Source: a bacterium
GTDB taxonomy: Bacteria; Patescibacteriota; Microgenomatia; Daviesbacterales; UBA10151
Length of the DNA: 64,000 nt
Direction of reading: 5' to 3'
Assembly (NCBI GenBank): GCA_021786315.1
Contig: JAJYNN010000002.1
Location: 31,370 to 95,369, forward strand
A program made the position numbers and the translations under genes. The notes beneath the pieces are model-generated. The model saw nothing but the letters and a program-made list of their open reading frames with translations. It was not told the origin of the DNA and made no database searches. Below are positions 28,289 to 63,291 of the stretch, in pieces (positions within the stretch are counted from its first letter, which is position 1; each line of letters begins with the position of its first letter).

Positions 28289-30041
28289 TATCTACTTTTT
28301 TCCTTGCGAGGAGTTCCTGGGGGTTGGTGGTGATTAAATTATGCTCTTCTTCTGAGGCAACTACCCTCATGGCAACGTGGGTATTGCCGGCAAAGAACAA
28401 TCCCTGGCCGATACTGCCTGCCTGCAGGATCCTTTTTTCTCCTTGGGAAAGGTTAAAGACCTGGCCTAAGGTTTCCACGGAAATAGGCGCTTGTTTTAGT
28501 AGAACCTGCATGGCGGAGTTGGAAATAATTTCCTTGCCCCGGTCGGTGCCTAAGAAATCCTCCACATCTTGGCTGATAGTGGTTACTCCTAAGAAATATT
28601 TACGTGAACGTTTAACCATCTCTACTAAGAAGGCGGCGGAATCGGGATACTTCATCATGTACCAGGCTTCATCTACTACCAGGATCCTTTTCTTAAGCTC
28701 CCGCCTGATCTTTGTCCAAACATAATCCAGGATCAGGTACATAGCCAAAGGCCGCAGCTGGTCGGGAAGTTCGCGGACGGAAAAGACGGTAAAAGGATTG
28801 TCTAATTTGATATTGGAGTGGGTAGAGAAAATCCCGGATAGTGATCCTTTAATAAACCTCTCTAGTCTTACAGCTAAGGAGTTGGCTATTTGGTCTTCCA
28901 TGCCGATTAAGACTTTATACAGATCCTCCATAAGGGGCGGTTCGGCTCCGGCGGGCATGTTGGTGGAGGTAATTCCTTTGAGGCGGTAAGTCGTATTTAG
29001 TGCCCGGTCTAAGATTGCTGCTTCCTGGGAATTAAGATCCCCTAAAACCAGCTTCAAAAATCCAATTAAAGAAAGGATTTTTCTTCCCAACTCATCCTCG
29101 CCTCTGTCGGCCACTTCCGGCAAGTCAAAGGGGTTAATCTTTACCGGTGAGTTTGAGGAGAAGCTAATATAATCCCCGCCCACGGCTTTAGCTAAATCGG
29201 CATACTCCCTTTCCGGATCGATCACGATAACCTCAGTGCCCAGCATTAACGACCTTAAGGCCTCAAGTTTGACGAAGTAGGATTTACCGCTGCCGGCCGT
29301 GGCCAAAACTACCGAGTTGGCGTTTTCCCCTCCAAAGCGGTCGTAAATAATTAAGGAATCATTATGTTCGTTGATCCCGTAAATTACCCCTTCAGCCGAC
29401 ATCAGTTCAGAAGATGTAAAAGGGAAAGTGGTGGCCAAAGAGGTGGTATCCATGTTGTGGGTCAGGTACAAAAGATCCTGGCCTAACGGCTCGGTGCAGA
29501 TAAACCCTTCCTGCATCTGTAAAATCGAAGGTCTGACAGTCACTGAAATACTTCCTAAGGTTGATTCAACGAGTTGAGATTTGTTGTCGAGCTCGGTTTT
29601 GGACCTGGCGGGAGCAGTAATATATAGGCTGTATTGGAAAAATCTTTCGGCGCCTTTGGCCAGTTGTTCCTGTAAATCCCGGGCATCTTCCAAGGCCACG
29701 GTAACTGAGGGGTCGATCACCCGGCCCCGTTCAACGTCGGTCTGAATGGTTGCCTCCATCTCGGCGATCTTTCTTTTTAGATCATCCAGAACTCCGGCAG
29801 ATTTAGTAGGGTATATAAACATGGAAATATATAAGGAATGCTCAAAAGAAACGAGTGGTTCCAGCCAATTGGGTTGAACAAATCTGGGGTATCCCGAAGC
29901 ATAAAAGGTGCGGTAAACACTGTTACAAAGCCGAAGATACGAAAAATCCACCTCCATCTCTAAAGGTGCAACGACATCTTCAATATTTAGCCCTGTGGAA
30001 ACAGGAGCTGGTTGGTTAGTTTTTTTACGGCCCAAAATCAT
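28281..30041 (-). CDS. VirB4/TraE/TrsE-family T4SS ATPase, C-terminal ATPase portion
   Basis: Walker A LATAGSGKS, Walker B ILVVDEAW, conserved YYRTF...GYP middle region and TTISQDVED block. Confidence 0.85.
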   Translation of the reverse strand: MILGRKKTNQPAPVSTGLNIEDVVAPLEMEVDFSYLRLCNSVYRTFYASGYPRFVQPNWLEPLVSFEHSLYISMFIYPTKSAGVLDDLKRKIAEMEATIQTDVERGRVIDPSVTVALEDARDLQEQLAKGAERFFQYSLYITAPARSKTELDNKSQLVESTLGSISVTVRPSILQMQEGFICTEPLGQDLLYLTHNMDTTSLATTFPFTSSELMSAEGVIYGINEHNDSLIIYDRFGGENANSVVLATAGSGKSYFVKLEALRSLMLGTEVIVIDPEREYADLAKAVGGDYISFSSNSPVKINPFDLPEVADRGEDELGRKILSLIGFLKLVLGDLNSQEAAILDRALNTTYRLKGITSTNMPAGAEPPLMEDLYKVLIGMEDQIANSLAVRLERFIKGSLSGIFSTHSNIKLDNPFTVFSVRELPDQLRPLAMYLILDYVWTKIRRELKKRILVVDEAWYMMKYPDSAAFLVEMVKRSRKYFLGVTTISQDVEDFLGTDRGKEIISNSAMQVLLKQAPISVETLGQVFNLSQGEKRILQAGSIGQGLFFAGNTHVAMRVVASEEEHNLITTNPQELLARKKVDNG

Positions 30042-30870
30042 CGTTTAACTCTTCCACGACAAATGGGGGAGAAAGGGGGGTGGTGGATGAAGGAGCTGGG
30101 GCAGAGGGAATGGGAGTTTGGGGTATGGGGTGAGGCGCAAAAGCTGGTTGAGTGGGAGCGGGTTGAGGTAAAGGTGCAGTAGTTTGGGGAGCAGCTACTT
30201 CCACAGGTTGGTTTATTAGCTTCTTGTCTTCACCGGCCACCTGGTCTACTGATTTATCTGATTTTCTGGCTTCCGGCTTCTGTTTTCCATCCTCCAGGCT
30301 AAACTGGTTTTCCGGATAAGGTGGGTTATAGATGTTGTAAAAGAGGGTCACCAGGTCAGGGGTGGTCATTTGTCTGGACTTTAACCCTAACCTGGAAAGT
30401 TGCCTAATGACGTGGTCTCGCCTGGGGGCAAGCACCGTGGTTGCCCGTTTGCTTTTGTCGGCAATATTTTTAGGTAAAACTCCGAGCTCCACCGGATTTA
30501 CCGCCAGGCAAACATAAAATTGTTTATCCAGGACGTTTTTCTCCTTAATAATACCGGCCACAAATTCGCGGTAACGGGCGGTCATGTTTTTTAACAGGGG
30601 ATTAGTCTGGGTGGCCAAAGCCTTATCTAAAGTTGACAGGTATGATGAGACATCCAGCCTTCTGGACTGGACAACAATTTGGATAGGGAAGGAGAGGGAG
30701 TTTAAAAACCCGGCAAAGGATTCAATAATCGACATTTGCTCAGTTTCAAAAAGCAGCCCGAAGTTCACAGCGGAGGTAGAAATGACCATAGTTACCCCTC
30801 CGTTTTTTAAAAAGACTAAATTATCTTTAATATCGGCAATAGGTACAAAACTTTGGCTACGATTGACCAT
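30025..30870 (-). CDS. VirB4 N-terminal domain encoded as a separate ORF with a Pro-rich C-terminal linker
   Basis: PIADIKDNLVFLKNGGVTMVI...SEEQ pattern typical of the VirB4/CagE N-terminal region; 17-nt overlap with the ATPase ORF in another frame. Confidence 0.5.
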   Translation of the reverse strand: MVNRSQSFVPIADIKDNLVFLKNGGVTMVISTSAVNFGLLFETEQMSIIESFAGFLNSLSFPIQIVVQSRRLDVSSYLSTLDKALATQTNPLLKNMTARYREFVAGIIKEKNVLDKQFYVCLAVNPVELGVLPKNIADKSKRATTVLAPRRDHVIRQLSRLGLKSRQMTTPDLVTLFYNIYNPPYPENQFSLEDGKQKPEARKSDKSVDQVAGEDKKLINQPVEVAAPQTTAPLPQPAPTQPAFAPHPIPQTPIPSAPAPSSTTPLSPPFVVEELNDDFGP

Positions 30871-32062
30871 TTTCTGCTTTCTTTGGATGGATTGTAATTG
30901 GCTGAATAACCTCCCCTTCTAAAGAAATTTGTAAGGTATCAAATTCCATGTTCTCTTTTTCCATGGTTAAGTTGTAGGTTCCTGAGGGGAGTGGAGTGGC
31001 GCCACTGAATTGTCCCAGCTTATTTGTCTTTAACGCCCTTACCGGAAGGCCCTCGCTGTTATGGATAATAACAATTACTCCTTCCAGGAAGTTGCCTGCT
31101 TCATCAGAGATAACTCCGTTGATGACGTTGGGGAGCGAAGTTAGGGTGATCTGGGTCTTAACCTCTTTTTTGGGTTCTACTACCACCACATGAGCTTTTT
31201 GGGGTTGCACAACTGGGGTCGGTACAGCAACAGGGTTTTGGGGTGTGGGCTGAGCGGTTACCTGGTTGATTTGGGAAGTTTGTTGATATAGTTTTCCGGT
31301 TTGGGCAACCAGGTTTTGTAAGTTTTGGGAAGCTTGTTGGAATTTTGCAGCGTATTCCGGCCCCGCGATTTCTTTTTGGGCGGCCATGCTCCGGAGAACT
31401 TGGATTTGCCTTTCGGCTTCGGCGATTTTGGATTGTAATAAATGCGCCTCATTAGCCATAGCTACCAATTTGGATAGGTTTTCACTGGAGGGGAGCGCTG
31501 TTGGCGCAGGATTGGTTTGGGTTGTTGTTTGCAGCTGTGGTGTTGGCTCAGGAGCAGGACTTGGACCAGGTGTTGAGGAAAGTGGTGCCTGTGTTTGAGA
31601 TACCGGGGTTGAAGACGGTGCCAAGCGGGTCATCCTTGGCAGAGGTGCGGCAGATTTGGGCTGGGGAGCGGGAGATGTTACCCCAATATTAGTCAGGTAT
31701 CGTTGCAGACGGTTCTTAAAGAGGGGATCGTTGTCGCTAACCTTATTTTTTTGGCCTGTGATTACCCAAAAGCCTTGGGTAGGCGAGTAAATGGCCTTAA
31801 GAAATGCCAAAACCCAGTGATCTAGAGGCCGGTCAAAGATAGGCACAAAAGCAAAGGCTATGCCGGTTAGGGTTGAGACTGTAATAATAGGCAGAGCCAG
31901 AAAAATATTTACCGGGAAGAGCAGGGTAAAAGATACATAGGCAATGGCAAAGCCGGTAGCCAGATACCCAAACTGTTTTAAGGTCATATCTCCCACCAAA
32001 CGGAACTGGAAGGAAGTGACGTTTTGGGGGACAGGATGATCTAGCATAGCAAAAGGGATCAT
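30857..32062 (-). CDS. PrgI/VirB3-like membrane protein fused to Pro-rich linker, coiled coil and C-terminal CarboxypepD_reg-like beta-sandwich domain
   Basis: N-terminal FQFRLVGDMTLKQF plus two TM helices (PrgI-family pattern); C-terminal GVISDEAGNFLEGVIVII...GxYNL pattern of carboxypeptidase regulatory-like domains. Confidence 0.45.
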   Translation of the reverse strand: MIPFAMLDHPVPQNVTSFQFRLVGDMTLKQFGYLATGFAIAYVSFTLLFPVNIFLALPIITVSTLTGIAFAFVPIFDRPLDHWVLAFLKAIYSPTQGFWVITGQKNKVSDNDPLFKNRLQRYLTNIGVTSPAPQPKSAAPLPRMTRLAPSSTPVSQTQAPLSSTPGPSPAPEPTPQLQTTTQTNPAPTALPSSENLSKLVAMANEAHLLQSKIAEAERQIQVLRSMAAQKEIAGPEYAAKFQQASQNLQNLVAQTGKLYQQTSQINQVTAQPTPQNPVAVPTPVVQPQKAHVVVVEPKKEVKTQITLTSLPNVINGVISDEAGNFLEGVIVIIHNSEGLPVRALKTNKLGQFSGATPLPSGTYNLTMEKENMEFDTLQISLEGEVIQPITIHPKKAENGQS

Positions 32063-44797: not shown

Positions 44798-44915
44798 ATT
44801 TTCAAGTACCAAGTACCAGTTTTCAATCAATATCCAATAACCAATTTTCCAATTTAGACGTTAAAAAATTGAAAATTCATTGGAAATTTAAAATTATGAA
44901 TTTAAAATTATAACA

Positions 44916-45831: not shown

Positions 45832-46527
45832 ATGCCACATATCCTTGATATCTTATTTCCTAAGCTCTGTGTGGGTTGTCATAAGCTTGGCACCTATTTT
45901 TGTCCCAAATGTATAAACAACATTGCCCAGGGGGAGTTGGTGTGCCCAAATTGCGAAAAAGCGGCTATTGGGGGAATGACCCATCCGCTTTGTAAAAAGA
46001 GGTATGGTTTGGATGGGCTTTGGAGTCTGGGAATTTATCAGGATCCTTTAAAGAAAGCGATCCAAAAACTCAAATATAAATTTGTTTCCCAGATTGCCGA
46101 AACGCTTTTGGATTTAATGATTGTTTATTGGGCCAAACACATTCCGCAATTTTTGGAGGAGATTAAAAAGGATAAGGGAGTAGGGTGGGTGGTAGTGCCG
46201 GTGCCCCTACATCCCAAAAGACAAAAGTGGCGGGGCTTTAATCAATCAGCCTTATTGGGAAAAATGTTATCCCAAAAATTAGGTATGGAATATGCTGAAG
46301 CTTTGAAGCGTACCCGTTACACTAAACCCCAGGTAGGTATAAAAGCTTGGGAAAGAAAACAAAATATGCACAATGCTTTTGCTCCGAATTTAAAATTTAA
46401 AATTGAAAATTTAAAATTTCTCCTGGTAGATGATGTCTGGACTACCGGTTCAACCCTAAAAGAATGTGCTTATGTCTTAAAAAAAGGAGGAGCCCAGAAA
46501 GTCTGGGCAATTACATTGGCTAGGTGA
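45832..46527 (+). CDS. comFC: ComF family protein (ComFC-like phosphoribosyltransferase)
   Basis: N-terminal CxxC...CPxC zinc finger; C-terminal PRTase block LLVDDVWTTGSTL. Confidence 0.8.
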   Translation: MPHILDILFPKLCVGCHKLGTYFCPKCINNIAQGELVCPNCEKAAIGGMTHPLCKKRYGLDGLWSLGIYQDPLKKAIQKLKYKFVSQIAETLLDLMIVYWAKHIPQFLEEIKKDKGVGWVVVPVPLHPKRQKWRGFNQSALLGKMLSQKLGMEYAEALKRTRYTKPQVGIKAWERKQNMHNAFAPNLKFKIENLKFLLVDDVWTTGSTLKECAYVLKKGGAQKVWAITLAR

Positions 46528-46626
46528 TTATTGATCCTGAATTTGATAAAATTGTCAGGCATGGAGAGGTCGCATAAGACATCTTTGCCTTCAGCAAAGA
46601 ATCTTGAGCTACTCTCTGTTGTAAAA

Positions 46627-47806: not shown

Positions 47807-47929
47807 CAAACAAACAAAGTGTGGTTTGTGCACGAAGGGGAACAGGATCTTTGACGAAGTCAAAGTAGCCCTAATCCCGCCGAGCGCGCCAAGTTTTGGA
47901 GGTGGGGTTGCATAATCCGCCAGGTGACG

Positions 47930-47975
47930 GATTGCGATAGTTCCACTGCTTCGCAGTGTGTAACTATCTAATGCG
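47930..47975. repeat. 38-nt hairpin repeat, copy 1 (GATAGTTCCACTGCTTCGCAGTGTGTAACTATCTAATG)
   Basis: Inverted repeat GATAGTT...AACTATC with an inner CACTGC/GCAGTG stem; a second copy at ~48120-48157 differs by 2 nt. Confidence 0.6.
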
Positions 47976-47988
47976 GCCTAGATAATTT

Positions 47989-48074
47989 GGAGGGTTGTCC
48001 GAGTGGTTTATGGAGATTGTTTCGAAAACAATTGGTGCGAAAGCGCCGCGCAGGTTCGAATCCTGCACCCTCCG
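47989..48074 (+). tRNA. tRNA-Ser(CGA)
   Basis: Type II tRNA; anticodon stem ATTGT/ACAAT, loop TTCGAAA; T-arm GCAGG-TTCGAAT-CCTGC. Confidence 0.75.
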
Positions 48075-48077
48075 CAC

Positions 48078-48170
48078 TTGCCTTCGTAGGCTAATGGATG
48101 AAGGAGTAAAGCTCCTTCCGATAGTTCCACTGCTTTGCAGTGTATAACTATCTAATGGCCACGAGATAAT
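48078..48170 (+). pseudogene. truncated tRNA-like fragment (copy of the 5' half of tRNA 47735..47806) interrupted by hairpin repeat copy 2
   Basis: GCCTTCGTAGGCTAATGGAT...GGCCACGAGATAATG parallels GCCCTCGTAGGCTAATGGATAGACCACGAGATTGCG with a ~57-nt insertion in the D-loop; runs directly into tRNA-Arg(CCG). Confidence 0.45.
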
Positions 48171-48243
48171 GTGCCCGTGGCGCAATGGATAGCGCATCAG
48201 ATTCCGGATCTGAGGGTTGGAGGTTCGAATCCTCTCGGGCACG
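48171..48243 (+). tRNA. tRNA-Arg(CCG)
   Basis: Clean cloverleaf: GTGCCCG/CGGGCAC acceptor, D-arm GCGC-AATGGATA-GCGC, anticodon loop TTCCGGA. Confidence 0.8.
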
Positions 48244-49715: not shown

Positions 49716-49853
49716 ATCAGCGGAGAGGGAGGGATGATTCTCTCCTCGCTTTGCTCGGAGTTGAACCCGCTTCCTACTGTGTAGAGCGCAGATTCTCGGT
49801 CCCATTCCCTCAATATTTAAAAAACTCAACCATAAGGTTGGTTCTTTTAAATG

Positions 49854-51857: not shown

Positions 51858-51875
51858 TTTATGAACGAAGTGAAG

Positions 51876-51921
51876 AAATTACAGGATCGTTTTAACAAAG
51901 TTAAAAGGTAGCCCTATAAAT
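51876..51921 (+). promoter_or_regulatory. conserved intergenic motif family A (copy 1) abutting the rpoD start codon
   Basis: GAAATTACAGGATCG-TTTTAACAAAGTTAAAA-GGTAGCCCTATAAAT immediately followed by ATG. Confidence 0.55.
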
Positions 51922-53676: not shown

Positions 53677-53748
53677 TCCTCGGTAGCTCAATGGTAGAGC
53701 GGATCCCTGTTAAGGATAAGGTTCTAGGTTCGAGTCCTAGCCGAGGAG
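53677..53748 (+). tRNA. tRNA-Asn(GTT)
   Basis: U1-A72 acceptor (TCCTCGG/CCGAGGA), D-arm GCTC-AATGGTA-GAGC, anticodon loop CTGTTAA, T-loop TTCGAGT. Confidence 0.85.
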
Positions 53749-53822
53749 CTGAAATTTGTTATTATAACCAACCTTATTGTCAGAATTTAGCTTCTAGTCA
53801 CCTGGTTCTGTTCTATAAGTTT

Positions 53823-57764: not shown

Positions 57765-60107
57765 ATGGAAGCAAACCAGGTTGCAGCAGGTACTGATTTT
57801 TTTAATTTGTTTCTCCTTATCGGATTGCTGGTTATTCTTCTTTTAGGAGTTGTTTTAGGGCTGTTATATTTTAGCCGGTATTTTATCGCCATGTACCGTG
57901 ACCGGGACCGGGAAAAACGTTCCTTAAAGTCGGTTTTAATCCAGGTTAATGTTCCCCGGGACAACGAGATTAAGATCGATGCCATGGAGCAATTTTTTGC
58001 CTCCCTTTATGCCATCAAAAAAAACCAGGGGTTTATGAACTTAAAGCCTCAGGCCCAGATTTCCTTTGAAATAGTCGCGCTGCATGAATCTATCAGGTTT
58101 TTTATCTGTGTCCATGAATCGTTACGGGATTTGGTGGAAAAACAGATTCACGGAGCGTATCCTGACGCTGAAATTAAGGTTGTTCCGGAATACAATATTT
58201 TCTCGGAATCCGGTCAGACGGCTTATGTTATGTACAAGCTCAAAGGGGCAGACTACATGCCGATTAAAACCTACCGTGATTTGCCGACCGATCCGCTTTC
58301 CGCTTTGACTTCCGCTTTGGCCAAGATGCAGGAGGATGAGGGGGCGGTAGTCCAGATGATAATTTCCCCGGCGGACGGGAAGTGGAAGGACTTTGGAAAA
58401 AAGTGGCTTAAAAAAGAAAAGGATCCGGGAAAACCTGAGGCTCCCAAGGCTCCGCCTGACGCCAAACAACTGGAGGCGGTGGAAAACAAAATTTCCAAAC
58501 AAGGGTTTAATGTGTCTTTAAGGATTGTCACTTCTTCCACTTCCAAAGACAGCGCCAAAGCCCATTTGTCCAATATTAAAGCGGCTTTTGAGCAATTTGA
58601 CGGGCCATACAACAGCTTTTCGGGAATGAAGATCCGTTCCGAAAAAGGGTTCATGACCGATTTTATCTACCGCTATATGCCGATGTTTTCCAAAACTCCG
58701 GTTTTGACCGCCGACGAGCTGGCATCGGTTTACCATTTCCCCAATAAATCAGTGACCACGCCGCACATTTCCTGGCTGCCGGCCCGTTCCGCCCCGGCTT
58801 CAGAAAAAATTCCTACGAGCGGTTTGTACCTTGGGAAATCCGTTTTCCGGGGGACGGAGAGGCCGGTGTTTATTTCCGAGGAGGACCGGGCGCGCCACAT
58901 GTATATCATCGGAAGAACCGGTACCGGAAAAACTACCTTGCTCAAGACCCTGATGCTGCAGGATATTTTATCTGGCAAAGGTTTGTGTTTTATCGACCCC
59001 CACGGCGATGCGGCGGAGGAGCTGCTCTCGCTTATTCCGCCCCACCGGGCCCAGGATGTAATTTATTTTGATCCCGGAGACACCCAAAGGCCGTTCGGGA
59101 TGAATATGCTGGATGCGGAAACTGAGGATGAAAAACACTTTGTGGTGGCCAACATCTTAGGACTTATGTATAAGCTGTTTGACCCCAACAAGACCGGTAT
59201 TATTGGGCCGCGGTTTGAGCACGGTGTCCGCAACGCCATGTTGACTGTCATGTCGGTGCCGGGCAATACCTTTGTGGAAGTCATGCGGATTATGCAGGAT
59301 CCGGAGTTTGTCCGTGAGCTTTTGCCGCACGTGAACGATCCAATTGTTAAACGCTACTGGACCGACCAGATTGCCCACACCCAGGATTTCCATAAATCCG
59401 AGGTTTTGGATTACACCGTTTCCAAATTCGGCCGCTTTGTCACTAACCGGATGATGAGAAATATCATCGGCCAGTCAAAGTCTTCCTTTAACCTCCGCCA
59501 GATTATGGACGAGGGGAAAATTTTGATCGTCAACCTTTCCAAGGGAAAGATGGGGGAGGAGAACTCCAACTTCCTGGGATTAATTTTAGTGCCGAAGATC
59601 TTAGCCGCCGCCATGTCCCGGGCCAATATGCCGGAAGAGCAGCGCCGGCCGTTCTACCTTTACGTTGATGAGTTTCAAAACTTTGCCACCGATACCTTTG
59701 CCACTATTCTTTCTGAGGCCAGAAAATACCGCCTGAACTTAACGGTAGCCAACCAATTTATCGGCCAGATGCCGGAGGATATTAAATCCGCCATTTTCGG
59801 TAACGTTGGTACCACCATTGCTTACCGGGTGGGTGTGCCCGATGCCCAGTTCCTCCAGCATGAGTTTTCTCCGGTGTTTACTGAACAGGATCTGGTCAAT
59901 ATTGAGGCTTGGCATGTTTACATCAAGACCCAGGTAAAAGGTGAACCAATTCCGCCTTTTTCAATGTTTGTGAAACCTAACTTTGATGCCTGGAATGCCT
60001 TAAAACGGCCGGATATAGCCCAAGCCATTAAGGAGCTTTCCCGGCTCACTTATGGGCGGGATGTAGCGGAAGTGGAAGCAGAGATCAACCAAAGAGCCAA
60101 ACTTTAA
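57765..60107 (+). CDS. VirD4/TraG/TraD-like (FtsK-HerA superfamily) ATPase with N-terminal TM anchor, candidate T4SS coupling protein
   Basis: N-terminal TM helix; Walker A IIGRTGTGKTTLL, FIDPHGD, Walker B YLYVDEFQNF, TVANQFIGQM block. Confidence 0.55.
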   Translation: MEANQVAAGTDFFNLFLLIGLLVILLLGVVLGLLYFSRYFIAMYRDRDREKRSLKSVLIQVNVPRDNEIKIDAMEQFFASLYAIKKNQGFMNLKPQAQISFEIVALHESIRFFICVHESLRDLVEKQIHGAYPDAEIKVVPEYNIFSESGQTAYVMYKLKGADYMPIKTYRDLPTDPLSALTSALAKMQEDEGAVVQMIISPADGKWKDFGKKWLKKEKDPGKPEAPKAPPDAKQLEAVENKISKQGFNVSLRIVTSSTSKDSAKAHLSNIKAAFEQFDGPYNSFSGMKIRSEKGFMTDFIYRYMPMFSKTPVLTADELASVYHFPNKSVTTPHISWLPARSAPASEKIPTSGLYLGKSVFRGTERPVFISEEDRARHMYIIGRTGTGKTTLLKTLMLQDILSGKGLCFIDPHGDAAEELLSLIPPHRAQDVIYFDPGDTQRPFGMNMLDAETEDEKHFVVANILGLMYKLFDPNKTGIIGPRFEHGVRNAMLTVMSVPGNTFVEVMRIMQDPEFVRELLPHVNDPIVKRYWTDQIAHTQDFHKSEVLDYTVSKFGRFVTNRMMRNIIGQSKSSFNLRQIMDEGKILIVNLSKGKMGEENSNFLGLILVPKILAAAMSRANMPEEQRRPFYLYVDEFQNFATDTFATILSEARKYRLNLTVANQFIGQMPEDIKSAIFGNVGTTIAYRVGVPDAQFLQHEFSPVFTEQDLVNIEAWHVYIKTQVKGEPIPPFSMFVKPNFDAWNALKRPDIAQAIKELSRLTYGRDVAEVEAEINQRAKL

Positions 60108-61360
60108 GCAGCTTTTGGGTTGGAAGGCTTACGCTGTTCCTCCTGTAATCTTAATACAACCTTTTTCCAATTAGGAAGCGGCTCGTTTATTAGTAAGTTG
60201 AGGGTTTGTTGCCGGGATATCCCCATCATTTTTAGAATCCCCAAAGCATTAAAGCTGTTCTCTAGTATCTCTTGTTGATACTCGGTGACAAAAACTTTTT
60301 CTATATTTTGTTCGATTAGGGGACGGAGCGGTTCTCCTAATTTTTCAACAAAACGGTTAGTAATCATTTTTCTCCACTCTTGGCTGAAATAATCATACAA
60401 ACCTCCTTCCTCTTTGGGCTGTTTGAGATAATATCTAATTGTGGGTATTTCCCGCCCGTCTTTCCAGTAGGCCAAGATTTCATCTTTAGCTCGTCTTTCT
60501 CCTATTGCTCTTCCTGAAACAAGAGCTTGGTGAATAAGGGCTTGCTGCTCCTGCTCATTTTTGTCCTGCAGATCCATTTTTAATACCTTCAGTGCAAGCT
60601 CAGAGATAAAAAGATTAACTTGAATATTTTCCTTAACAAAAGAAGGGGCCTTCTGGCCATTCTCGAAGAGTTGAGCGCTATATTTTTTGTAGGAATCTTC
60701 AAATAATGCCATAACGGCGTGCTGCTCTTCGTGGGTTAAGATCTGTTTGCCCTGAGTATTAAAATCCCGTCCGTGGGCGTTTTCCAAAATAATGCTGTGT
60801 TCCAATCCTTTTATTTCCGGGTATTGAATAAACACCCCTCCAGATTTGTTGGCAGCTGCAACATCTGGTTGGCCTGATTCTTTATCCCTGAAATTGCCTC
60901 CGTACACATACGCGTAGTCTTCCGGGTTATTACAGCGAAAATATAAAGTAATTGGGCCGACTATAACTTCTACTTTGCCTTTTGGTTGATGTCCAAAAAG
61001 AAATCCAAAGAGTTCGTGGTCGTTGGGGTGTGCTGCCCTTATTTGTTTAACCTGTTGATGTCTATGCAGGTAGAGATCAATTCCGCTTTGGATTAAGTCT
61101 TTTTGTGTGGGGGTTAAATTCTCCTGTCCAGGGATCTTTTGGAAATAATCCATAAATTGTTCTTTAGTTAAGTCGGGATAATATCTGGCATAGTGTGCTA
61201 GGAACTGGAGGGTATTGCTGAGATCCTTTTTATTGGCAGCTAACTGTTCTTTAAACTCTTGAAGTTTTTGTGGTCTTTCTTTGGTAGGATATTTGAGAAT
61301 CTCTTTAGGGTTAAGGGAGCTGGGGGAGGTAGGAACCTCTGTTGTTTCTTGAGAGTCCAT
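60104..61360 (-). CDS. hypothetical protein with HExxH motif
   Basis: 418 aa; LTHEEQHAV is the only motif; convergent with the ATPase gene. Confidence 0.3.
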   Translation of the reverse strand: MDSQETTEVPTSPSSLNPKEILKYPTKERPQKLQEFKEQLAANKKDLSNTLQFLAHYARYYPDLTKEQFMDYFQKIPGQENLTPTQKDLIQSGIDLYLHRHQQVKQIRAAHPNDHELFGFLFGHQPKGKVEVIVGPITLYFRCNNPEDYAYVYGGNFRDKESGQPDVAAANKSGGVFIQYPEIKGLEHSIILENAHGRDFNTQGKQILTHEEQHAVMALFEDSYKKYSAQLFENGQKAPSFVKENIQVNLFISELALKVLKMDLQDKNEQEQQALIHQALVSGRAIGERRAKDEILAYWKDGREIPTIRYYLKQPKEEGGLYDYFSQEWRKMITNRFVEKLGEPLRPLIEQNIEKVFVTEYQQEILENSFNALGILKMMGISRQQTLNLLINEPLPNWKKVVLRLQEEQRKPSNPKAA

Positions 61361-61426
61361 AAAAACAGTATATCAGATGGTAAGCAGGCTCTAGCTTTGA
61401 TATAATTTGGCAGTTAGCGCGGATAG

Positions 61427-61489
61427 CTCAACGGTAAGCAAAGCTTGCGACCTTTGGTCTTAGAGCGATTGTCTTGCAATTTAAAATTT
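61427..61489 (+). pseudogene. tRNA 5'-fragment (acceptor 5' strand, D-arm, partial anticodon arm; no T-arm)
   Basis: GCGCGGATAGCTCAACGGTAAGC... then TTAGAGCGATTGTCTTGCAA resembling the D/anticodon region of the next tRNA. Confidence 0.4.
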
Positions 61490-61564
61490 GGAGCTGTAGC
61501 TCAATGGTAGAGCGAATGTCTTATACACATTTGGTTCCTGGTTCGAGTCCAGGCAGCTCCACCA
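61490..61564 (+). tRNA. tRNA-Ile(TAT) (anticodon UAU)
   Basis: Acceptor GGAGCTG/CAGCTCC, D-arm GCTC-AATGGTA-GAGC, anticodon stem AATGT/ACATT with loop CTTATAC, T-arm CCTGG-TTCGAGT-CCAGG, encoded CCA. Confidence 0.7.
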
Positions 61565-61584
61565 AATTTTAAATTGAGAATGTA

Positions 61585-61660
61585 ACAATTGGTTCCAGGT
61601 TCGTTCATAACAAGGTTATGCTTACTTGTTAAGGTCCAGGCAGCTCTACTAAATTAAAGT
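61585..61660 (+). repeat. partial duplicate of the tRNA-Ile 3' half with a ~31-nt insertion in the T-loop
   Basis: TGGTTCCAGGTTCG-[TTCATAACAAGGTTATGCTTACTTGTTAAGG]-TCCAGGCAGCTCTAC parallels TGGTTCCTGGTTCGAGTCCAGGCAGCTCCACCA. Confidence 0.55.
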
Positions 61661-61699
61661 TCTTCGAGTTTGATCTTGCTGCGAAGCAGAAGATTAAGT

Positions 61700-62566
61700 T
61701 TATAATTCTTCTAACTTGATCTTATCCTCGGAAGTTCGGGAGGGGACAAAGGCTAAATATCTTTCCGTAGTGGAAACCCGTTTGTGACCGGCAAGCTTGG
61801 AAACAATAGAGAGCGTTAACCCGGACTCCAGTTGGTGTACCACCCAGGTATGTCTTAAATCATTAACTTTAGCCCCTTTGATTCCGGCCAACCTAAAGTA
61901 CCTGTCGATGGCAGTCCTGATGTTTCTGACAAGCAGGGGACGGCCGGTTTTGGTGACAAATAAGGCTTTGCTTTGGGTCTTGGGTCTGATTTCGAGGTAT
62001 CTTTTTACAGCCTCAATAGCAGATTTAGTTAAAGGCACAGTTCTTTCTATAGAACCTTCTTCGGGACGGATATAGATGTGGGGGTTTTCTCCCTCAAGAC
62101 GGACATCTTCTACAGTGAGCTTGGCTAATTCACCGATTCTGATACCGGTTTGAAGAAGTAATTCGATAACAGCTGACATCCGGATATCGCCCCGGGCAGC
62201 GTCCCTTAAAGCCCGGTATTCCAGCTTAGAGAGCATCCTGGGAGGCTTGTTTTCAAACGTGGGGTGCTCCAGACCAACAGCCGGATCGGATTCAATAATA
62301 TTGGAGGTTTTTAAGAACTTAAAGAAGGTTTTGGTGGAGTTGGTTTTACGGGAAACAGATTTTGGGGTATAGTTTTCTTTGCCAAGTTTACGCATGAAAT
62401 CCCGTAAATCTTCGGTAGTGACTTGTGAGGGGTCTTCAATACCCTTAGAATTAAGGAAGTCTACCAGCTGCTCAATATCCTTACCGTACGCAAGGATAGT
62501 CGCAGAGGAGCGGCTTCGGCCTTTAAGATGCCCGATAAATTGTTGTCTGGCGTCTGATAATTTCAT
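61700..62566 (-). CDS. tyrosine recombinase (XerC/XerD-like; phage-integrase family)
   Basis: N-terminal SAM-like domain; catalytic R...HxxR...Y (LLQTGIRIGELAKL, LRHTWVVHQL, HKRVSTTERY). Confidence 0.8.
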   Translation of the reverse strand: MKLSDARQQFIGHLKGRSRSSATILAYGKDIEQLVDFLNSKGIEDPSQVTTEDLRDFMRKLGKENYTPKSVSRKTNSTKTFFKFLKTSNIIESDPAVGLEHPTFENKPPRMLSKLEYRALRDAARGDIRMSAVIELLLQTGIRIGELAKLTVEDVRLEGENPHIYIRPEEGSIERTVPLTKSAIEAVKRYLEIRPKTQSKALFVTKTGRPLLVRNIRTAIDRYFRLAGIKGAKVNDLRHTWVVHQLESGLTLSIVSKLAGHKRVSTTERYLAFVPSRTSEDKIKLEEL

Positions 62567-62576
62567 AAAGAATTAT

Positions 62577-62623
62577 GAAATTACAGGATCGTTCCAACGT
62601 AGTTGGAAGGTAGCCCTATAAAT
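62577..62623 (+). promoter_or_regulatory. conserved intergenic motif family A (copy 2) upstream of ftsB
   Basis: GAAATTACAGGATCG-TTCCAACGTAGTTGGAA-GGTAGCCCTATAAAT. Confidence 0.55.
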
Positions 62624-63035: not shown

Positions 63036-63060
63036 CCCCCTAGGGGCTTAACTTTTGTTG
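63036..63060 (+). terminator. Rho-independent terminator downstream of ftsB
   Basis: AAAAGCCCCCTAGGGGCTT hairpin followed by a T-run. Confidence 0.6.
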
Positions 63061-63216
63061 CGGGGGTTGGATTAAGTCTACTTTGACTTACGTCAAAGAT
63101 CTTGTAATCTCGCTTCGCTCGATTATCGAACCTGCTTAGAACTGTGTTCTGCGCATAGCTCTCCCAATACCCCCATATAACCGAAAAAGCCCCTCACAAA
63201 GAGGGACTTTTTCAAT

Positions 63217-63291
63217 TGGTTGCGGGGGTTGGATTCGAACCAACGACCTCGAGATTATGAGCCTCGCGAGCTGCCACTGCTCTACCCCGCG
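63217..63291 (-). tRNA. tRNA-Met(CAT) with C1-A72 mismatch
   Basis: Reverse-complement: CGCGGGG-TA-GAGC-AGTGGCA-GCTC, anticodon loop CTCATAA, T-arm GTTGG-TTCGAAT-CCAAC, CCCCGCA-A-CCA; terminator-like hairpin at ~63182-63210. Confidence 0.8.

Follow-up and report, generated by a model that had tools for sequence, protein, structure and literature searches.

A tRNA-Ile(UAU) gene nested among apparent relics of a different tRNA-Ile(UAU) allele at a conserved Patescibacteriota locus

The intact tRNA-Ile(UAU) gene and AUA decoding

Between a gene of unassigned function and a gene for a tyrosine recombinase, the window (the whole 64,000-nt, or 64-kb, stretch of DNA analysed) carries an intact tRNA-Ile(UAU) gene, enclosed first by inverted-repeat arms and then by partial tRNA sequences. 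Type Q denotes the tRNA of the intact gene and type R that of the relic pieces around it; relic positions follow tRNA numbering, and loci of related genomes are given by their L numbers. The features are, in order:

60104-61360, minus strand: 418-aa gene of unassigned function, inserted with the TraG-like gene on one side and the tRNA promoter on the other; no homologue found
61398-61406, plus strand: candidate extended -10 promoter element TGaTATAAT, read from the sequence, at the position of the tRNA promoter in relatives
61417-61436, plus strand: type R relic, positions 1-20 (acceptor 5′ strand and D arm to D loop), an exact 20-nt match to the intact tRNA-Ile(UAU) of L106
61437-61460, plus strand: hairpin-forming 24-nt D-loop insertion AGCAAAGCTTGCGACCTTTGGTCT, which splits relic pieces 1-20 and 20-34
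61461-61475, plus strand: type R relic, positions 20-34 (3′ strand of the D stem and 5′ strand of the anticodon stem), ending with the wobble T34, an exact 15-nt match to the intact tRNA of L036
61476-61489, plus strand: left arm of the cassette, G followed by CAATTTAAAATTT, perfect 13-bp complement of 61564-61576
61490-61564, plus strand: intact tRNA-Ile(UAU), type Q (ARAGORN, tRNA-Ile(tat); Rfam, tRNA)
61564-61584, plus strand: right arm of the cassette, AAATTTTAAATTG, which pairs with the left arm, and its tail AGAATGTA (from sequence, fold and locus comparison)
61585-61603, plus strand: type R relic, positions 39-57 (3′ strand of the anticodon stem, variable loop, 5′ strand of the T stem and start of the T loop), an exact 18-19-nt match to L036 and L106
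61604-61633, plus strand: hairpin-forming 30-nt T-loop insertion or junction TTCATAACAAGGTTATGCTTACTTGTTAAG, replacing one T-loop base
61634-61649, plus strand: 3′ end of a second type Q tRNA copy, positions 59-74, GTCCAGGCAGCTCTAC, with a 13-nt exact match to the intact gene
61654-61683, minus strand: pseudo-copy of the recombinase 3′ end (...RSKIKLEEL, stop; translated by hand), directly after the type Q 3′ end
61673-61694, no strand assigned: hairpin ATCTTGCTGCGAAGCAGAAGAT (core GCGAAGC), between the 3′ ends of the pseudo-copy and of the recombinase gene
61700-62566, minus strand: Xer-like tyrosine recombinase of 288 aa (Pfam Phage_integrase and SAM_1), stop codon at 61700-61702

An earlier note, made from the sequence, had described a genomically encoded tRNA-Ile(UAU) with CCA at this place, and both ARAGORN and the Rfam tRNA model (75.4 bits, E=5.5e-16, all stems paired) bear it out. 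The molecule has a canonical cloverleaf with the acceptor stem GGAGCTG/CAGCTCC, A73 and an encoded CCA, and an anticodon loop, CTTATAC, that contains U33, the anticodon UAU and A37, with the C at position 38 found in the tRNA-Ile(UAU) of this lineage. Since the TAT anticodon is the same in three independent Logan assemblies, it is not a misread CAU, as the note had asked; indeed, these three further assemblies together with the covariation of the arms across species rule out a sequencing or assembly error. The intact tRNA is identical in L001 and L002, and L003 deviates at just two bases of the 3′ end. With Rfam at relaxed E-values, the region from 60.5 to 64 kb yielded matches to three tRNAs only, the fragments receiving no score.

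Type Q belongs to a family of 116 UAU tRNAs from the fetched loci, which have the anticodon arm (GTCTTATACAC) in common and vary in their stems. One D-arm variant of this tRNA occurred in at least 120 GTDB species genomes, a lower bound from a single scan, and most of these are labelled Patescibacteria, so the tRNA is ordinary for the lineage. To call it uncommon in bacteria, as had been done before, agrees with a literature in which bacterial tRNA-Ile(UAU) is rare and an exception to lysidine-based AUA decoding (PMC3575796 and recent literature), but the tRNA type is common in CPR.

AUA makes up 192 of the 18,602 codons in the window (10.3 per 1000), and in orthologue alignments AUA sites hold I in 32%, V in 20%, L in 12% and M in 3% of cases, a profile like that of ATT/ATC sites and unlike that of ATG sites. 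As to the codon-usage check suggested earlier, AUA is in use and, judging by these alignments, behaves as Ile. The genomic TAT anticodon, A37, A73 and the use of AUA as Ile are shared with tRNA-Ile2(UAU) of tilS-less bacteria (Mycoplasma mobile, also Bifidobacterium and Neorickettsia; PMC3575796). Whereas the system of Taniguchi et al. 2013 (PMC3575796) comprised nine scattered species, the tRNA is here common throughout a radiation of phylum rank. An IleRS that accepts U34 would have Arg or Lys in the place of E. coli W905 or be of type 2; the 64-kb window encodes no IleRS, its sole class Ia synthetase being ValRS, and a literature search on CPR and lysidine or tilS returned nothing.

The genome might nevertheless also carry tilS and a tRNA-Ile2(CAU), in which case the UAU tRNA would read AUA redundantly, a situation known from Lactobacillus casei and Cyanothece. 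Both systems do coexist in some bacteria (PMC3575796), and our data cover 64 kb of the genome only; still, we consider redundancy unlikely. No PP-loop (SGGxDS) protein is encoded within the window, and tblastn returned no TilS-like match in the window plus 1.3 Mb of CPR loci, a weak argument given a sample biased toward one locus and approximate query sequences. By the Silva 2006 criteria, the two CAU tRNAs of the window classify as one initiator and one elongator Met, neither of which appears to resemble tRNA-Ile2(CAU). Moreover, more than 50 related loci have the UAU tRNA at this conserved core position, and it is present in those at least 120 species.

TRNA pieces, arms and neighbouring genes

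The 5′ tRNA fragment previously noticed upstream of the intact gene is real, although it starts at 61417 rather than 61427 and consists of two pieces split by the 24-nt D-loop insertion, whose start (GGTA|AGCAAAGCTTGC) is found in L285 as well. Downstream, the duplicated 3′ half with its T-loop insertion likewise stands, the insertion measuring 30 nt and not 31. These relics were found by exact-seed scans; an nhmmer profile of UAU tRNAs was too insensitive for pieces so short, and a 12-mer panel scan was noisy, with false 'downstream' matches arising from neighbouring tRNA genes. The relic at 61585-61603 deviates from the intact gene at two type-distinguishing positions. The T-stem strands on either side of 61604-61633 read CCAGG and CCAGG and allow no pairing, which argues that this segment is a joint between two alleles; the variant 3′ end at 61634-61649 is the one that the intact gene has in L003. 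The outer acceptor strands of the window, GCGCGGA and CAGCTCT, are also mismatched, so that more than one event is needed to account for the arrangement. Relic ends in the window fall at positions 34/36-39 and 57/59, the 5′ relics lie upstream of the intact gene, and 20 nt separate it from the 3′ relic. To judge from these matches, the flanking fragments with positions 1-20, 20-34 and 39-57 are pieces of a different, lineage-typical tRNA-Ile(UAU) allele, broken in its D, anticodon and T loops.

Immediately around the intact gene, the two arms form a 13-bp helix with a 4x8 internal loop (fold z-score -2.05). Homologous arms occur in L263, L273, L275, L255 and L285, with the pairing preserved through two double changes, and the right-arm tail has a counterpart in L263, L273 and L275 (GGTGTATT) and in L255 (AGAATTTA). 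L262 has a type Q gene without relics, yet retains 9 nt of the right arm. Within the window the arm sequence is confined to this locus, apart from unrelated A/T-rich tandem repeats; of the features of a MITE, we thus found the inverted arms and neither multiple copies nor a fixed target-site duplication. The junctions differ among loci, with one base missing, a clean joint or 3-4 nt duplicated, so that neither one exact site nor one target duplication characterises the event. A phage or plasmid vector of the cassette was considered and rejected, as the right-arm motif AAATTTTGNTTGGGTGTAT gave only three matches in viral contigs, all of them chance matches in coding sequence. The tRNA pattern is common in IMG/VR and is uninformative on a vector.

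Upstream of the relics, a 10-mer of the promoter, TGATATAATT, is present in this interval in 7 loci, and TATAAT lies 8-15 nt upstream of the tRNA in L106, L036 and L020; a consensus scan revealed no full -35/-10 pair at the promoter. Being placed like the tRNA promoter of relatives, the element at 61398-61406 probably drives the whole composite transcript. At the other end of the locus, hairpins related to that at 61673-61694 (GCGAAGC or GAGCGAAGCGA) occur at tRNA-relic junctions elsewhere. GCGAAGC as such is not enriched in the window (5 occurrences versus 7.8 expected); the longer motif GAGCGAAGCGA is enriched ~25-fold across CPR loci and is found in the window's tRNA-fMet relic, too.

As previously proposed, the neighbouring gene encodes an Xer-like recombinase, with a Pfam Phage_integrase domain and Xer proteins as best matches. 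We apply this name by best match, the NCBIfam equivalog scores remaining below the curated cut-offs (XerC, 163 versus 335 bits; XerA, 162 versus 220; XerD, 161 versus 330). The gene had been thought to start 40 nt beyond the tRNA fragments, but it runs on the minus strand, its stop codon faces them and the pseudo-copy lies in between. The pseudo-copy and the real 3′ end (61700-61723) are identical at 19 of 24 positions, the codon differences in KIKLEEL being all synonymous, and the same juxtaposition of tRNA and stop codon exists in L262, L036 and L106. This 30-nt synonymous copy points to import from a related genome: with it, the second type Q copy carries ~30 nt of a foreign recombinase allele, so that the incoming DNA will have come from a relative with the same gene order. 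On the far side of the promoter, the 418-aa gene has no homologue in 120 genome loci or 80 metagenome loci and no match in Pfam, NCBIfam, PHROGs, PADLOC or PDB; it is lineage-specific cargo.

Gene order and nested tRNA genes in other CPR loci

More than 50 related loci share the order TraG-like ATPase, tRNA, recombinase and DivIC, whether they contain relics or not. The upstream ATPase is DUF8128/TraG-like, the recombinase is convergent, and its orthologues (59-79% identity) share the same synteny. The interval between the TraG stop and the recombinase stop ranges from 95 bp, where it holds only the tRNA, to 2.3 kb.

The nested layout recurs in ~20 other CPR loci. The outer and inner tRNA types differ in the five loci with homologous arms, two of which are nearly reciprocal, with an R-like outer around a GGGCGTG-type inner gene in L255 and the reverse in L285. 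The arms are unrelated in L035, L092, L103, L105, L100, L052, L305, L317, L039 and L045. The acceptor strands of the outer halves match in at least 7 loci, a sign that an intact gene was entered by a clean insertion there. Leader/trailer arms of at least 8 bp were present in 12 of 20 nested loci versus 1 of 142 others (P=1.8e-6). Across loci, the seed scan placed fragment ends mainly in or beside the three loops: for upstream pieces the most frequent ends are positions 34-38 and 21, and those downstream begin at about 34-39, 49-52 (the start of the T stem, where a mismatch can shorten the seed) and 56-59. Both the nested loci and the tRNA types are scattered on a neighbour-joining tree of the recombinase, built from this single 288-aa protein; homologous arms are scattered over the host tree as well, with interchangeable tRNA types. 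The window and L285 have the D-loop insertion and the left arm in common at only 66% recombinase identity.

Origin of the nested arrangement

We hold it to be fairly probable that the type Q gene replaced a type R resident and sits inside its predecessor, and that the locus reflects recurrent tRNA-gene swapping at a conserved hot spot and not a recombinase attachment site. Counting for replacement, the type R fragments correspond exactly to stretches of the intact tRNAs of L106 and L036, the closest relatives, and follow the ancestral promoter in their proper order. What the pieces are and how they are arranged, the recurrence in other CPR loci and the place of the recombinase as a conserved neighbour are direct observations; the mechanism of insertion we infer. 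The cassette would be a promoter-less tRNA between the 13-bp inverted-repeat arms, inserted in the type R anticodon at about U34 to U36. The nested gene would probably be transcribed from the old gene's promoter; the old 5′ half would serve as leader of the precursor, from which RNase P and 3′ processing would free the type Q tRNA. Interrupted in the D, anticodon and T loops, the old type R gene would be dead; within the T loop it passes into the 3′ end of another type Q copy, which bears the ~30 nt of the foreign recombinase allele.

The earlier note had seen in the arrangement an att-like site that had been used repeatedly. Accordingly phrased as an alternative, elements would have integrated time and again in the anticodon or T loop via the adjacent tyrosine recombinase and later been lost, leaving pieces of tRNA behind. 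The breakpoints do lie at the anticodon and T loops, sublocations known for tyrosine integrases and reportedly named as such by Williams in 2002. The recombinase adjoins the tRNA in the more than 50 loci described above, the interval beside its 3′ end is an insertion hot spot with toxin-antitoxin, GNAT, IVS-protein and GIY-YIG cargo, and 5 of 54 complete intervals (L025, L067, L252, L255 and L323) contain the tRNA in inverted orientation with respect to its neighbours. Repeated recombination with breakpoints in the loops is what stands of this idea. However, the recombinase is conserved in relic-free loci, with just 95-118 bp from its stop to the upstream gene, and is still there when only the tRNA remains between the flanking genes (L280, L281, L036, L262 and L106). 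Conversely, nested relics occur in CPR loci lacking the recombinase (within a fetched locus of up to 8 kb), and other tRNA genes of the window, distant from any recombinase, carry relics too. The comparison of related loci therefore speaks against an attachment site linked to this recombinase. At the locus itself there is no island, only the 20-nt gap between intact tRNA and 3′ relic, and a repeat search showed no distant repeat partner; furthermore, the intact tRNA is a complete foreign allele rather than a hybrid of host 5′ and element 3′ parts, and the 5′ relics are located upstream. All this makes the attachment-site explanation distinctly unlikely.

Known systems resemble the locus in part. 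Partial tRNA copies beside an intact gene, breakpoints in the anticodon and T loops and an adjacent tyrosine recombinase are likewise seen at tRNA-integrated islands and prophages (Islander, PMC4383910; tRNA gene fragments, PMC9897764), whereas here no island separates the repeats and a foreign tRNA gene is nested between 5′ relics upstream and 3′ relics downstream. Unlike an island integrase, the recombinase is a conserved Xer-like chromosomal gene that is present also at empty sites. Xer-exploiting integrative elements (IMEX) and the pdif modules of Acinetobacter plasmids are small, bracketed by inverted repeats and in part equipped with toxin-antitoxin cargo, and they gather beside, or by means of, a Xer recombinase system. 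Small inverted-repeat modules and toxin-antitoxin cargo next to an Xer system are common to both; here, in contrast, the arms are 13 bp long and of variable sequence, and the TraG-recombinase intervals contain no conserved 28-bp dif-like site, their shared k-mers being promoters and tRNA relics only.

A tandem duplication of the tRNA gene in situ, followed by decay, deletions and gene conversion and involving no imported DNA, appears very improbable. Tandem or near-tandem UAU copies exist in L039 and L064, and the intact gene of L003, having the 3′ end of the downstream copy, points to conversion between copies. Yet inner and outer copies are different alleles, which match the intact genes of different relatives, and the two outer halves form a pair that encloses the inner gene. 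In addition, the duplicated recombinase 3′ end differs synonymously only, as for a foreign functional allele, and the tRNA types are scattered on the host tree.

Finally, a functional RNA design, whether intron-like, of the split-tRNA kind or a scaffold for processing that needs the outer halves, is scarcely credible: the outer pieces match functional sequences exactly, the arms covary and L285, despite its low recombinase identity, has the same D-loop insertion and the same left arm, but neither the outer acceptor strands nor the T-stem strands can pair, relics are decayed or deleted in L262, L255 and L263, and Rfam finds tRNA only, with a fold z-score of just -2.05. The group I intron of tRNA-Leu(UAA) lies between U34 and A35, the same site as the insertion in the window. 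Such introns and archaeal multi-intron or split tRNA genes share with our locus the interruption at U34/A35, further interruptions in the D and T loops and an insert helix extending the anticodon stem; here, however, the insert is itself an entire tRNA gene, not large enough to hold a group I core and devoid of a ribozyme core or terminal G, the 13-bp helix with its 4x8 internal loop lacks bulge-helix-bulge geometry, and the outer gene is decayed.

As to how a replacement of the type R gene might come about, the leading idea is that breaks in the loops of tRNA genes would be repaired from imported divergent DNA, in a homing-like process as with SegB of phage T4. This process could be driven by the small GIY-YIG nucleases, with their hairpin repeats, next to the tRNA genes of relatives. 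GIY-YIG genes adjoin the tRNA-Ile(UAU) gene in L120, L026, L265, L279, L260 and L283. Close to tRNAs in general they are modestly enriched (7 of 25 lie within 200 nt, 2.8 being expected, P ~0.015), which counts against this idea. Inverted hairpins (GTCATTCCGA...) bracket only the four GIY-YIG copies between the TraG-like gene and the tRNA; as a general GIY-YIG companion they were discarded, being absent from other family members. The 64-kb window has no GIY-YIG ORF, and no nuclease, transposase or element-borne integrase lies near the locus in the window. SegB, a free-standing GIY-YIG homing endonuclease from the tRNA cluster of phage T4, has the T-loop motif GGTTCRANTCC as its recognition sequence; by cutting tRNA genes it brings about the replacement of a rival's tRNA region (PMC2330249). 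The likeness consists in a GIY-YIG gene among tRNA genes: those of CPR relatives abut tRNA-Ile(UAU), and relic breakpoints in CPR loci fall at GGTTCGA|. In contrast to SegB, the CPR proteins are putative nucleases of ~70-100 aa that comprise the catalytic domain only and no DNA-binding domain, and T4 offers no counterpart to the anticodon-loop insertion with palindromic arms.

Going one step further, CPR tRNA-Ile(UAU) genes may be both target and cargo of a self-replacing palindromic cassette, perhaps mobilised by GIY-YIG nucleases and hairpins, within an arms race and in genomes that would decode AUA by the UAU tRNA instead of lysidine. This is a tentative proposal, possible but rather doubtful at present. 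A cassette of this kind would enter the anticodon of the resident gene, destroy that gene and provide a copy of its own, and so could not be lost; if it exists, the arms race would explain the large tRNA differences between close relatives.

Nested relics can be miscalled, which calls for caution in annotating tRNAs of metagenome-assembled genomes. Should tilS really be absent, much of bacterial diversity would decode AUA in a manner unlike the textbook, and tilS-free decoding, if true, would bear on how IleRS and the ribosome discriminate AUA from AUG. The locus itself represents a gene-in-gene mode of replacement for an essential tRNA, with layers that can be dated (R, then P or Q). With its covarying arms and, in some loci, its nuclease and hairpin companions, it offers a tractable natural system for the turnover of an essential RNA gene by selfish DNA.

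Intact tRNA-Ile(UAU) gene and AUA decoding

ARAGORN predicted 10 tRNA genes in the window, among them an isoleucine tRNA with a UAU anticodon and two CAU tRNAs:

61490-61564, plus strand: tRNA-Ile(tat), called by ARAGORN
63217-63291, minus strand: initiator CAU tRNA (tRNA-fMet), with C1xA72, A11-T24 and G12-C23
63914-63987: elongator Met CAU tRNA, with C3-G70 and C11-G24

The Rfam tRNA model scored the isoleucine gene (GGAGCTG-TA-GCTC-AATGGTA-GAGC-G-AATGT-CTTATAC-ACATT-TGGTT-CCTGG-TTCGAGT-CCAGG-CAGCTCC-A-CCA) at 75.4 bits (E=5.5e-16) with all stems paired, and over 60.5-64 kb returned no further scores beyond this gene and the two CAU tRNAs. The protein of the adjacent Xer-like recombinase gene was found residue-identical on contigs of other samples, and the intergenic region recurs in three Logan assemblies, TAT anticodon included, which excludes a sequencing error at this site and confirms the earlier note's genuine genomic tRNA-Ile(UAU) with a well-formed cloverleaf. 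Over a 55-nt stretch, the window's tRNA-Asn(GUU) (53677-53749) is 78% identical to it; D arm and T loop are shared, but the discriminator is G73 in tRNA-Asn(GUU) and A73 in tRNA-Ile(UAU).

Of the 18,602 codons in 58 long ORFs, 192 are AUA (10.3 per 1000; 15% of Ile codons), and they are distributed across nearly all genes. At 11 AUA sites in four genes with orthologues in the fetched loci, orthologue residues were I 32%, V 20%, L 12% and M 3%, a profile similar to that of ATT and ATC sites and unlike that of ATG sites (M 48%), which shows that AUA is read as isoleucine and not reassigned. Under the criteria of Silva et al. (PMC1635315) for classing CAU tRNAs, neither of the two in the window is a tRNA-Ile2(CAU) candidate. 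No PP-loop (SGGxDS) protein is encoded within the 64-kb window, and tblastn with TilS N-terminal domains (approximate queries) found no match in 1.3 Mb of single-locus-biased CPR DNA plus the window. The proposal that the gene is a genuine UAU decoder is thus borne out by AUA usage and by the Ile-type residues aligned with AUA sites; it would work like the tRNA-Ile2(UAU) of Mycoplasma mobile.

The earlier note's further description of such a tRNA as uncommon in bacteria agrees with the literature, in which bacterial tRNA-Ile(UAU) is reported from nine species (PMC3575796), a 2026 preprint speaks of 'rare cases', and 'almost all bacterial tRNAsIle use lysidine' (PMC11938285), but not with our scan of one genome per GTDB species, in which the pattern of a D arm plus CTTATA loop occurred in at least 120 loci. 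Most of these matches carry CPR labels (Saccharibacteria, Levy-, Davies-, Gottesman-, Roizman- and Magasanikbacteria, Paceibacteria and others); a few among the matches listed are DPANN archaea or other bacteria, and several 'uncultured Gammaproteobacteria' records and one 'Bathyarchaeia' record show CPR-type gene order at the locus. Viral contigs of IMG/VR often contain the pattern, too. A literature search found no paper connecting CPR with lysidine. The 116 UAU tRNAs from fetched genome loci have the anticodon arm (commonly GTCTTATACAC) and A73 in common, while their acceptor, anticodon and T stems vary by genome and each retains an ARAGORN cloverleaf; varied stems with a conserved fold suggest a functional family.

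A tRNA gene nested within a broken tRNA gene

Among relatives whose loci are simple, the closest ones (L106, L036 and L020; recombinase ~70% identical) have a different tRNA-Ile(UAU) allele, type R (GCGCGGATAGCTCAACGGTAGAGC...GGTTCCAGGTTCGAATCCTGGTCCGCGCAC). Downstream of the ancestral extended -10 promoter, the window holds exact pieces of this allele in order, separated by insertions:

61417-61436: type R relic, tRNA positions 1-20, exact match
D-loop insertion: 24 nt, hairpin-forming
61461-61475: type R relic, tRNA positions 20-34, exact match
Anticodon insertion: 109 nt, including the intact gene (type Q)
61585-61603: type R relic, tRNA positions 39-57, exact match
T-loop insertion: 30 nt

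The tRNA fragments previously noticed on both sides contain these pieces of type R, and the T-loop insertion measures 30 nt, not 31. Beyond it, GTCCAGGCAGCTCTAC is the 3′ end of type Q, not of type R, so that the T loop is a joint of two alleles. Four nt further on, TTA-AAG-TTC-TTC-GAG-TTT-GAT-CTT... reads on the opposite strand as ...KIKLEEL plus stop, a duplicate of the recombinase 3′ end that differs from the real end (61700-61723) synonymously only. It adjoins the tRNA 3′ end as the real gene end does in relatives such as L262, which has type Q directly against the recombinase; together with the synonymous differences, this juncture shows that the piece was imported from a related genome in which the genes stand in the same order. 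The intact gene is enclosed by a perfect 13-bp inverted repeat (CAATTTAAAATTT, 61477-61489; AAATTTTAAATTG, 61564-61576), predicted to form a helix that lies beneath the cloverleaf and stacks on the former anticodon stem (z = -2.05).

Exact-seed scans on the flanks of each UAU tRNA (~150 assessable loci) detected relic pieces on both sides in 15 and on one side in 34 further loci, some of the one-sided 'downstream' matches being neighbouring tRNA genes. The commonest end points of upstream pieces are positions 34-38 and 21, and downstream pieces start at ~34-39, ~49-52 (the T-stem start, where a mismatch can shorten the seed) and 56-59; thus, breaks fall mainly in or beside the anticodon, D and T loops. 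Self-fragments at less than 500 nt accompany 14/104 UAU tRNA genes versus 8/108 other tRNA genes of the same loci, four of these eight cases lying in the window.

Comparison across related loci, as the earlier note had proposed, revealed one layout in ~20 of them: a 5′ half up to the anticodon and a 3′ half, and between these an intact tRNA flanked by two complementary arms. Matching acceptor strands of the outer halves in at least seven loci (L263, L273, L275, L064, L105, L052 and L305) indicate that the gene was intact and the insertion clean. Arms of at least 8 bp occur in 12/20 nested loci versus 1/142 others (Mann-Whitney P = 1.8e-6). In the window's clade (L263, L273, L275, L255, L285 and the window) the arms are homologous: between CTT and TACAG stand GCAAnCAAAATTT, the tRNA and AnnAAATTTTGnTTG-GGTGTATT. 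Their pairing survives two double changes, one from T-A to A-T and the other from T-A to C-G. The tRNA types inside and outside the arms, including further alleles P and P′, are interchangeable:

L263, L273: outer P, inner Q
L275: outer P′, inner R
Window: outer R, inner Q
L255: outer R-like copy, inner GGGCGTG type
L285: outer GGGCGTG type, inner R

In L251 and L253, an intact P precedes a Q 3′ relic with the right arm still attached, followed in L251 by an R 3′ end, and in L262 (near L263) type Q stands without relics, but 9 nt from the start of the right arm remain, joined to the stop codon of the recombinase. In a neighbour-joining tree of the recombinase, the armed nested loci and the three types P, Q and R are intermingled. 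The simplest reading of these arrangements would be repeated replacement followed by relic erosion. Among L244-L323 (recombinase 59-79% identical), tRNA-Ile(UAU) diverges far more than the flanking proteins in close relatives, for example in the unusual D arm of type P (CGTCGTATAACGGTTAATACC) and in acceptor-stem swaps between otherwise identical bodies (L255 vs L263).

In L003 (Logan SRR22746126, 1541-1613), the intact tRNA ends in CAGCTCTACTA, versus CAGCTCCACCA in the window; T72 and T75 give this natural variant a G1-U72 pair and no encoded CCA. Since CAGCTCTACTA is the sequence of the window's downstream partial copy, both copies exchange sequence within the population, which is evidence for gene conversion between the intact tRNA and the downstream relic.

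The recombinase and its neighbourhood

Two protein-coding genes flank the tRNA in the window:

61700-62566, minus strand: recombinase, 288 aa, Phage_integrase and SAM-like domains
60104-61360, minus strand: extra cargo gene, 418 aa, between ATPase gene and tRNA promoter

The recombinase scored ~162 bits on each of the XerC, XerA and XerD models, under their curated cut-offs. Comparison of the window proteins by tblastn with genome loci and 80 metagenome loci fetched by recombinase indicated a conserved order of TraG/VirD4-like ATPase (DUF8128, 780 aa), tRNA-Ile(UAU), recombinase (convergent with the tRNA), DivIC and two tRNA-Met(CAT). In the 54 loci with both flanking genes complete, 95 bp-2.3 kb separate the ATPase stop from the recombinase stop; a 95-bp interval contains the promoter, the tRNA, 4-6 nt and nothing else, and the tRNA is inverted in five of the 54. 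Longer intervals carry cargo:

PIN toxin and antitoxin
YafQ-like toxin and RHH antitoxin
GNAT acetyltransferase
23S-rRNA-IVS four-helix-bundle protein
GIY-YIG nuclease

Conserved order, tRNA-only intervals and variable cargo show that the recombinase is a conserved gene of the chromosome next to a hot spot and no island integrase, contrary to its suggested role at an att site. It may take part in tRNA replacement, as it adjoins the tRNA locus and as tRNA inversions and inverted arms fit such a role, but nested relics also occur without a recombinase in the fetched locus (up to 8 kb) in L035, L092, L103, L120, L100 and L064. Of the att site used repeatedly, the repeated recombination stands; a tRNA-integrated island does not, because tests for element-bracketing repeats and for an element-borne integrase found neither. 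Intron and MITE were likewise rejected for the locus.

The 418-aa gene has no homologue among the fetched loci and no family match in the databases searched; its product contains an HEEQH (HExxH-like) motif. TAAGCAG stands at either end of its insertion (60105, 61381), and ahead of the tRNA promoter the ATPase 3′ end is faintly duplicated (GCAGGCTCTAG). A 47-nt repeat (87% identity; 51875-51921 and 62577-62623), with an inverted repeat TTCCAAC-GTA-GTTGGAA and TATAAAT at its end, is located upstream of a 362-aa ORF after dnaG (from its position presumably rpoD) and between the divergent recombinase and divIC genes, and may serve both sites as a promoter or operator. The cluster at 25910-32062 includes a VirB4-like conjugal-transfer ATPase (28281-30041; CD1110 family, E=1.4e-111) and resembles a system for type IV secretion or something like DNA uptake; large ORFs beside it in the cluster had no family match.

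Proposed loop-directed breaks and replacement from within

Relics also lie beside tRNA-fMet, tRNA-Arg(gcg) and tRNA-Ser(gga), breakpoints after GGTTCGA recur in several window tRNA species, and the fMet and Arg relics have a common junction, CTTTGACG(T)AAGTCAAAGTAGnCnT/AATCC (also written CTTTGACGAAGTCAAAGTAGCCCT/AATCC). Relics accompany 5/10 window tRNA genes:

47850-47890: partial self-copy after tRNA-Arg(gcg)
49720-49790, minus strand: partial self-copy after tRNA-Ser(gga)
46563-46576: partial self-copy before tRNA-Ser(gct)
48080-48099: partial self-copy before tRNA-Arg(ccg)
63058-63200, minus-strand reading: tRNA-fMet relic, downstream of tRNA-fMet

The Arg and Ser self-copies have T-loop or D-loop breaks with hairpins attached. 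The fMet relic comprises, in order, a T-arm 5′ piece (GCAGGTTCGA), hairpin TAATCGAGCGAAGCGAGATTA, hairpin CTTTGACGTAAGTCAAAG-TAGACTT and a 17-nt fMet 3′-end copy (AATCCAACCCCCGCAAC); all three Logan contigs stop near it, and in relatives a GIY-YIG gene fills the DivIC / tRNA-Met region. A 58-nt repeat (84% identity; 47932-47989 and 48116-48173) with hairpin CCACTGCTTCGCAGTGT, directly upstream of tRNA-Ser(cga) and tRNA-Arg(ccg), looks like a leader or promoter module common to tRNA genes. A/T-rich tandem repeats of AATTTAAAATT (44885-44912 and 46387-46420) resemble the cassette arm, the latter inside an ORF with, by eye, a ComF/phosphoribosyltransferase-like C-terminus.

Only 14 nt separate the old T34 from the intact tRNA, and the cassette therefore has no promoter of its own and needs that of the old gene. 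This promoter would drive transcription of the cassette, with the old 5′ half as a leader removed by RNase P. From several clues, we infer loop-directed breaks that would be repaired from imported DNA. Relic junctions carry hairpins whose loop is GAGCGAAGCGA or GAGTGAAACGA and whose stems vary, a motif ~25-fold enriched in CPR loci (15 found vs 0.6 expected). Small GIY-YIG genes (PF01541) lie 1-180 nt from tRNA-Ile(UAU) in L120, L026, L265, L279, L260 and L283, and 7/25 GIY-YIG genes are within 200 nt of a tRNA versus 2.8 expected (P about 0.015). Four of them (L265, L260, L279 and L283) occupy the ATPase-tRNA interval as ~400-bp modules just upstream of the tRNA promoter, with a GTCATTCCGA-type hairpin just upstream (GTCATTCCGAGTGAAACGAGGAATCTC) and, in all but L260, its inverted form downstream (GAGATCCTTCGCTGATCGCTCAGGATGAC). 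In L120, 35-nt direct relic repeats enclose the nuclease gene and the intact tRNA. L256 and L115 have a 23S-rRNA-IVS four-helix-bundle gene in place of the GIY-YIG module.

Phage T4 offers a precedent: among its clustered tRNA genes it encodes SegB, a GIY-YIG homing endonuclease whose recognition sequence is the T-loop motif GGTTCRANTCC. SegB cleaves tRNA genes and imposes the T4 version of the tRNA region on the progeny (PMC2330249). Against such a mechanism, the CPR GIY-YIG proteins are bare catalytic domains, the window contains no GIY-YIG gene, and junction details differ between loci. The description that suits the locus best is a variant form of tRNA-gene-targeted mobile DNA, in which an essential tRNA gene is replaced from within by a palindrome-armed copy.
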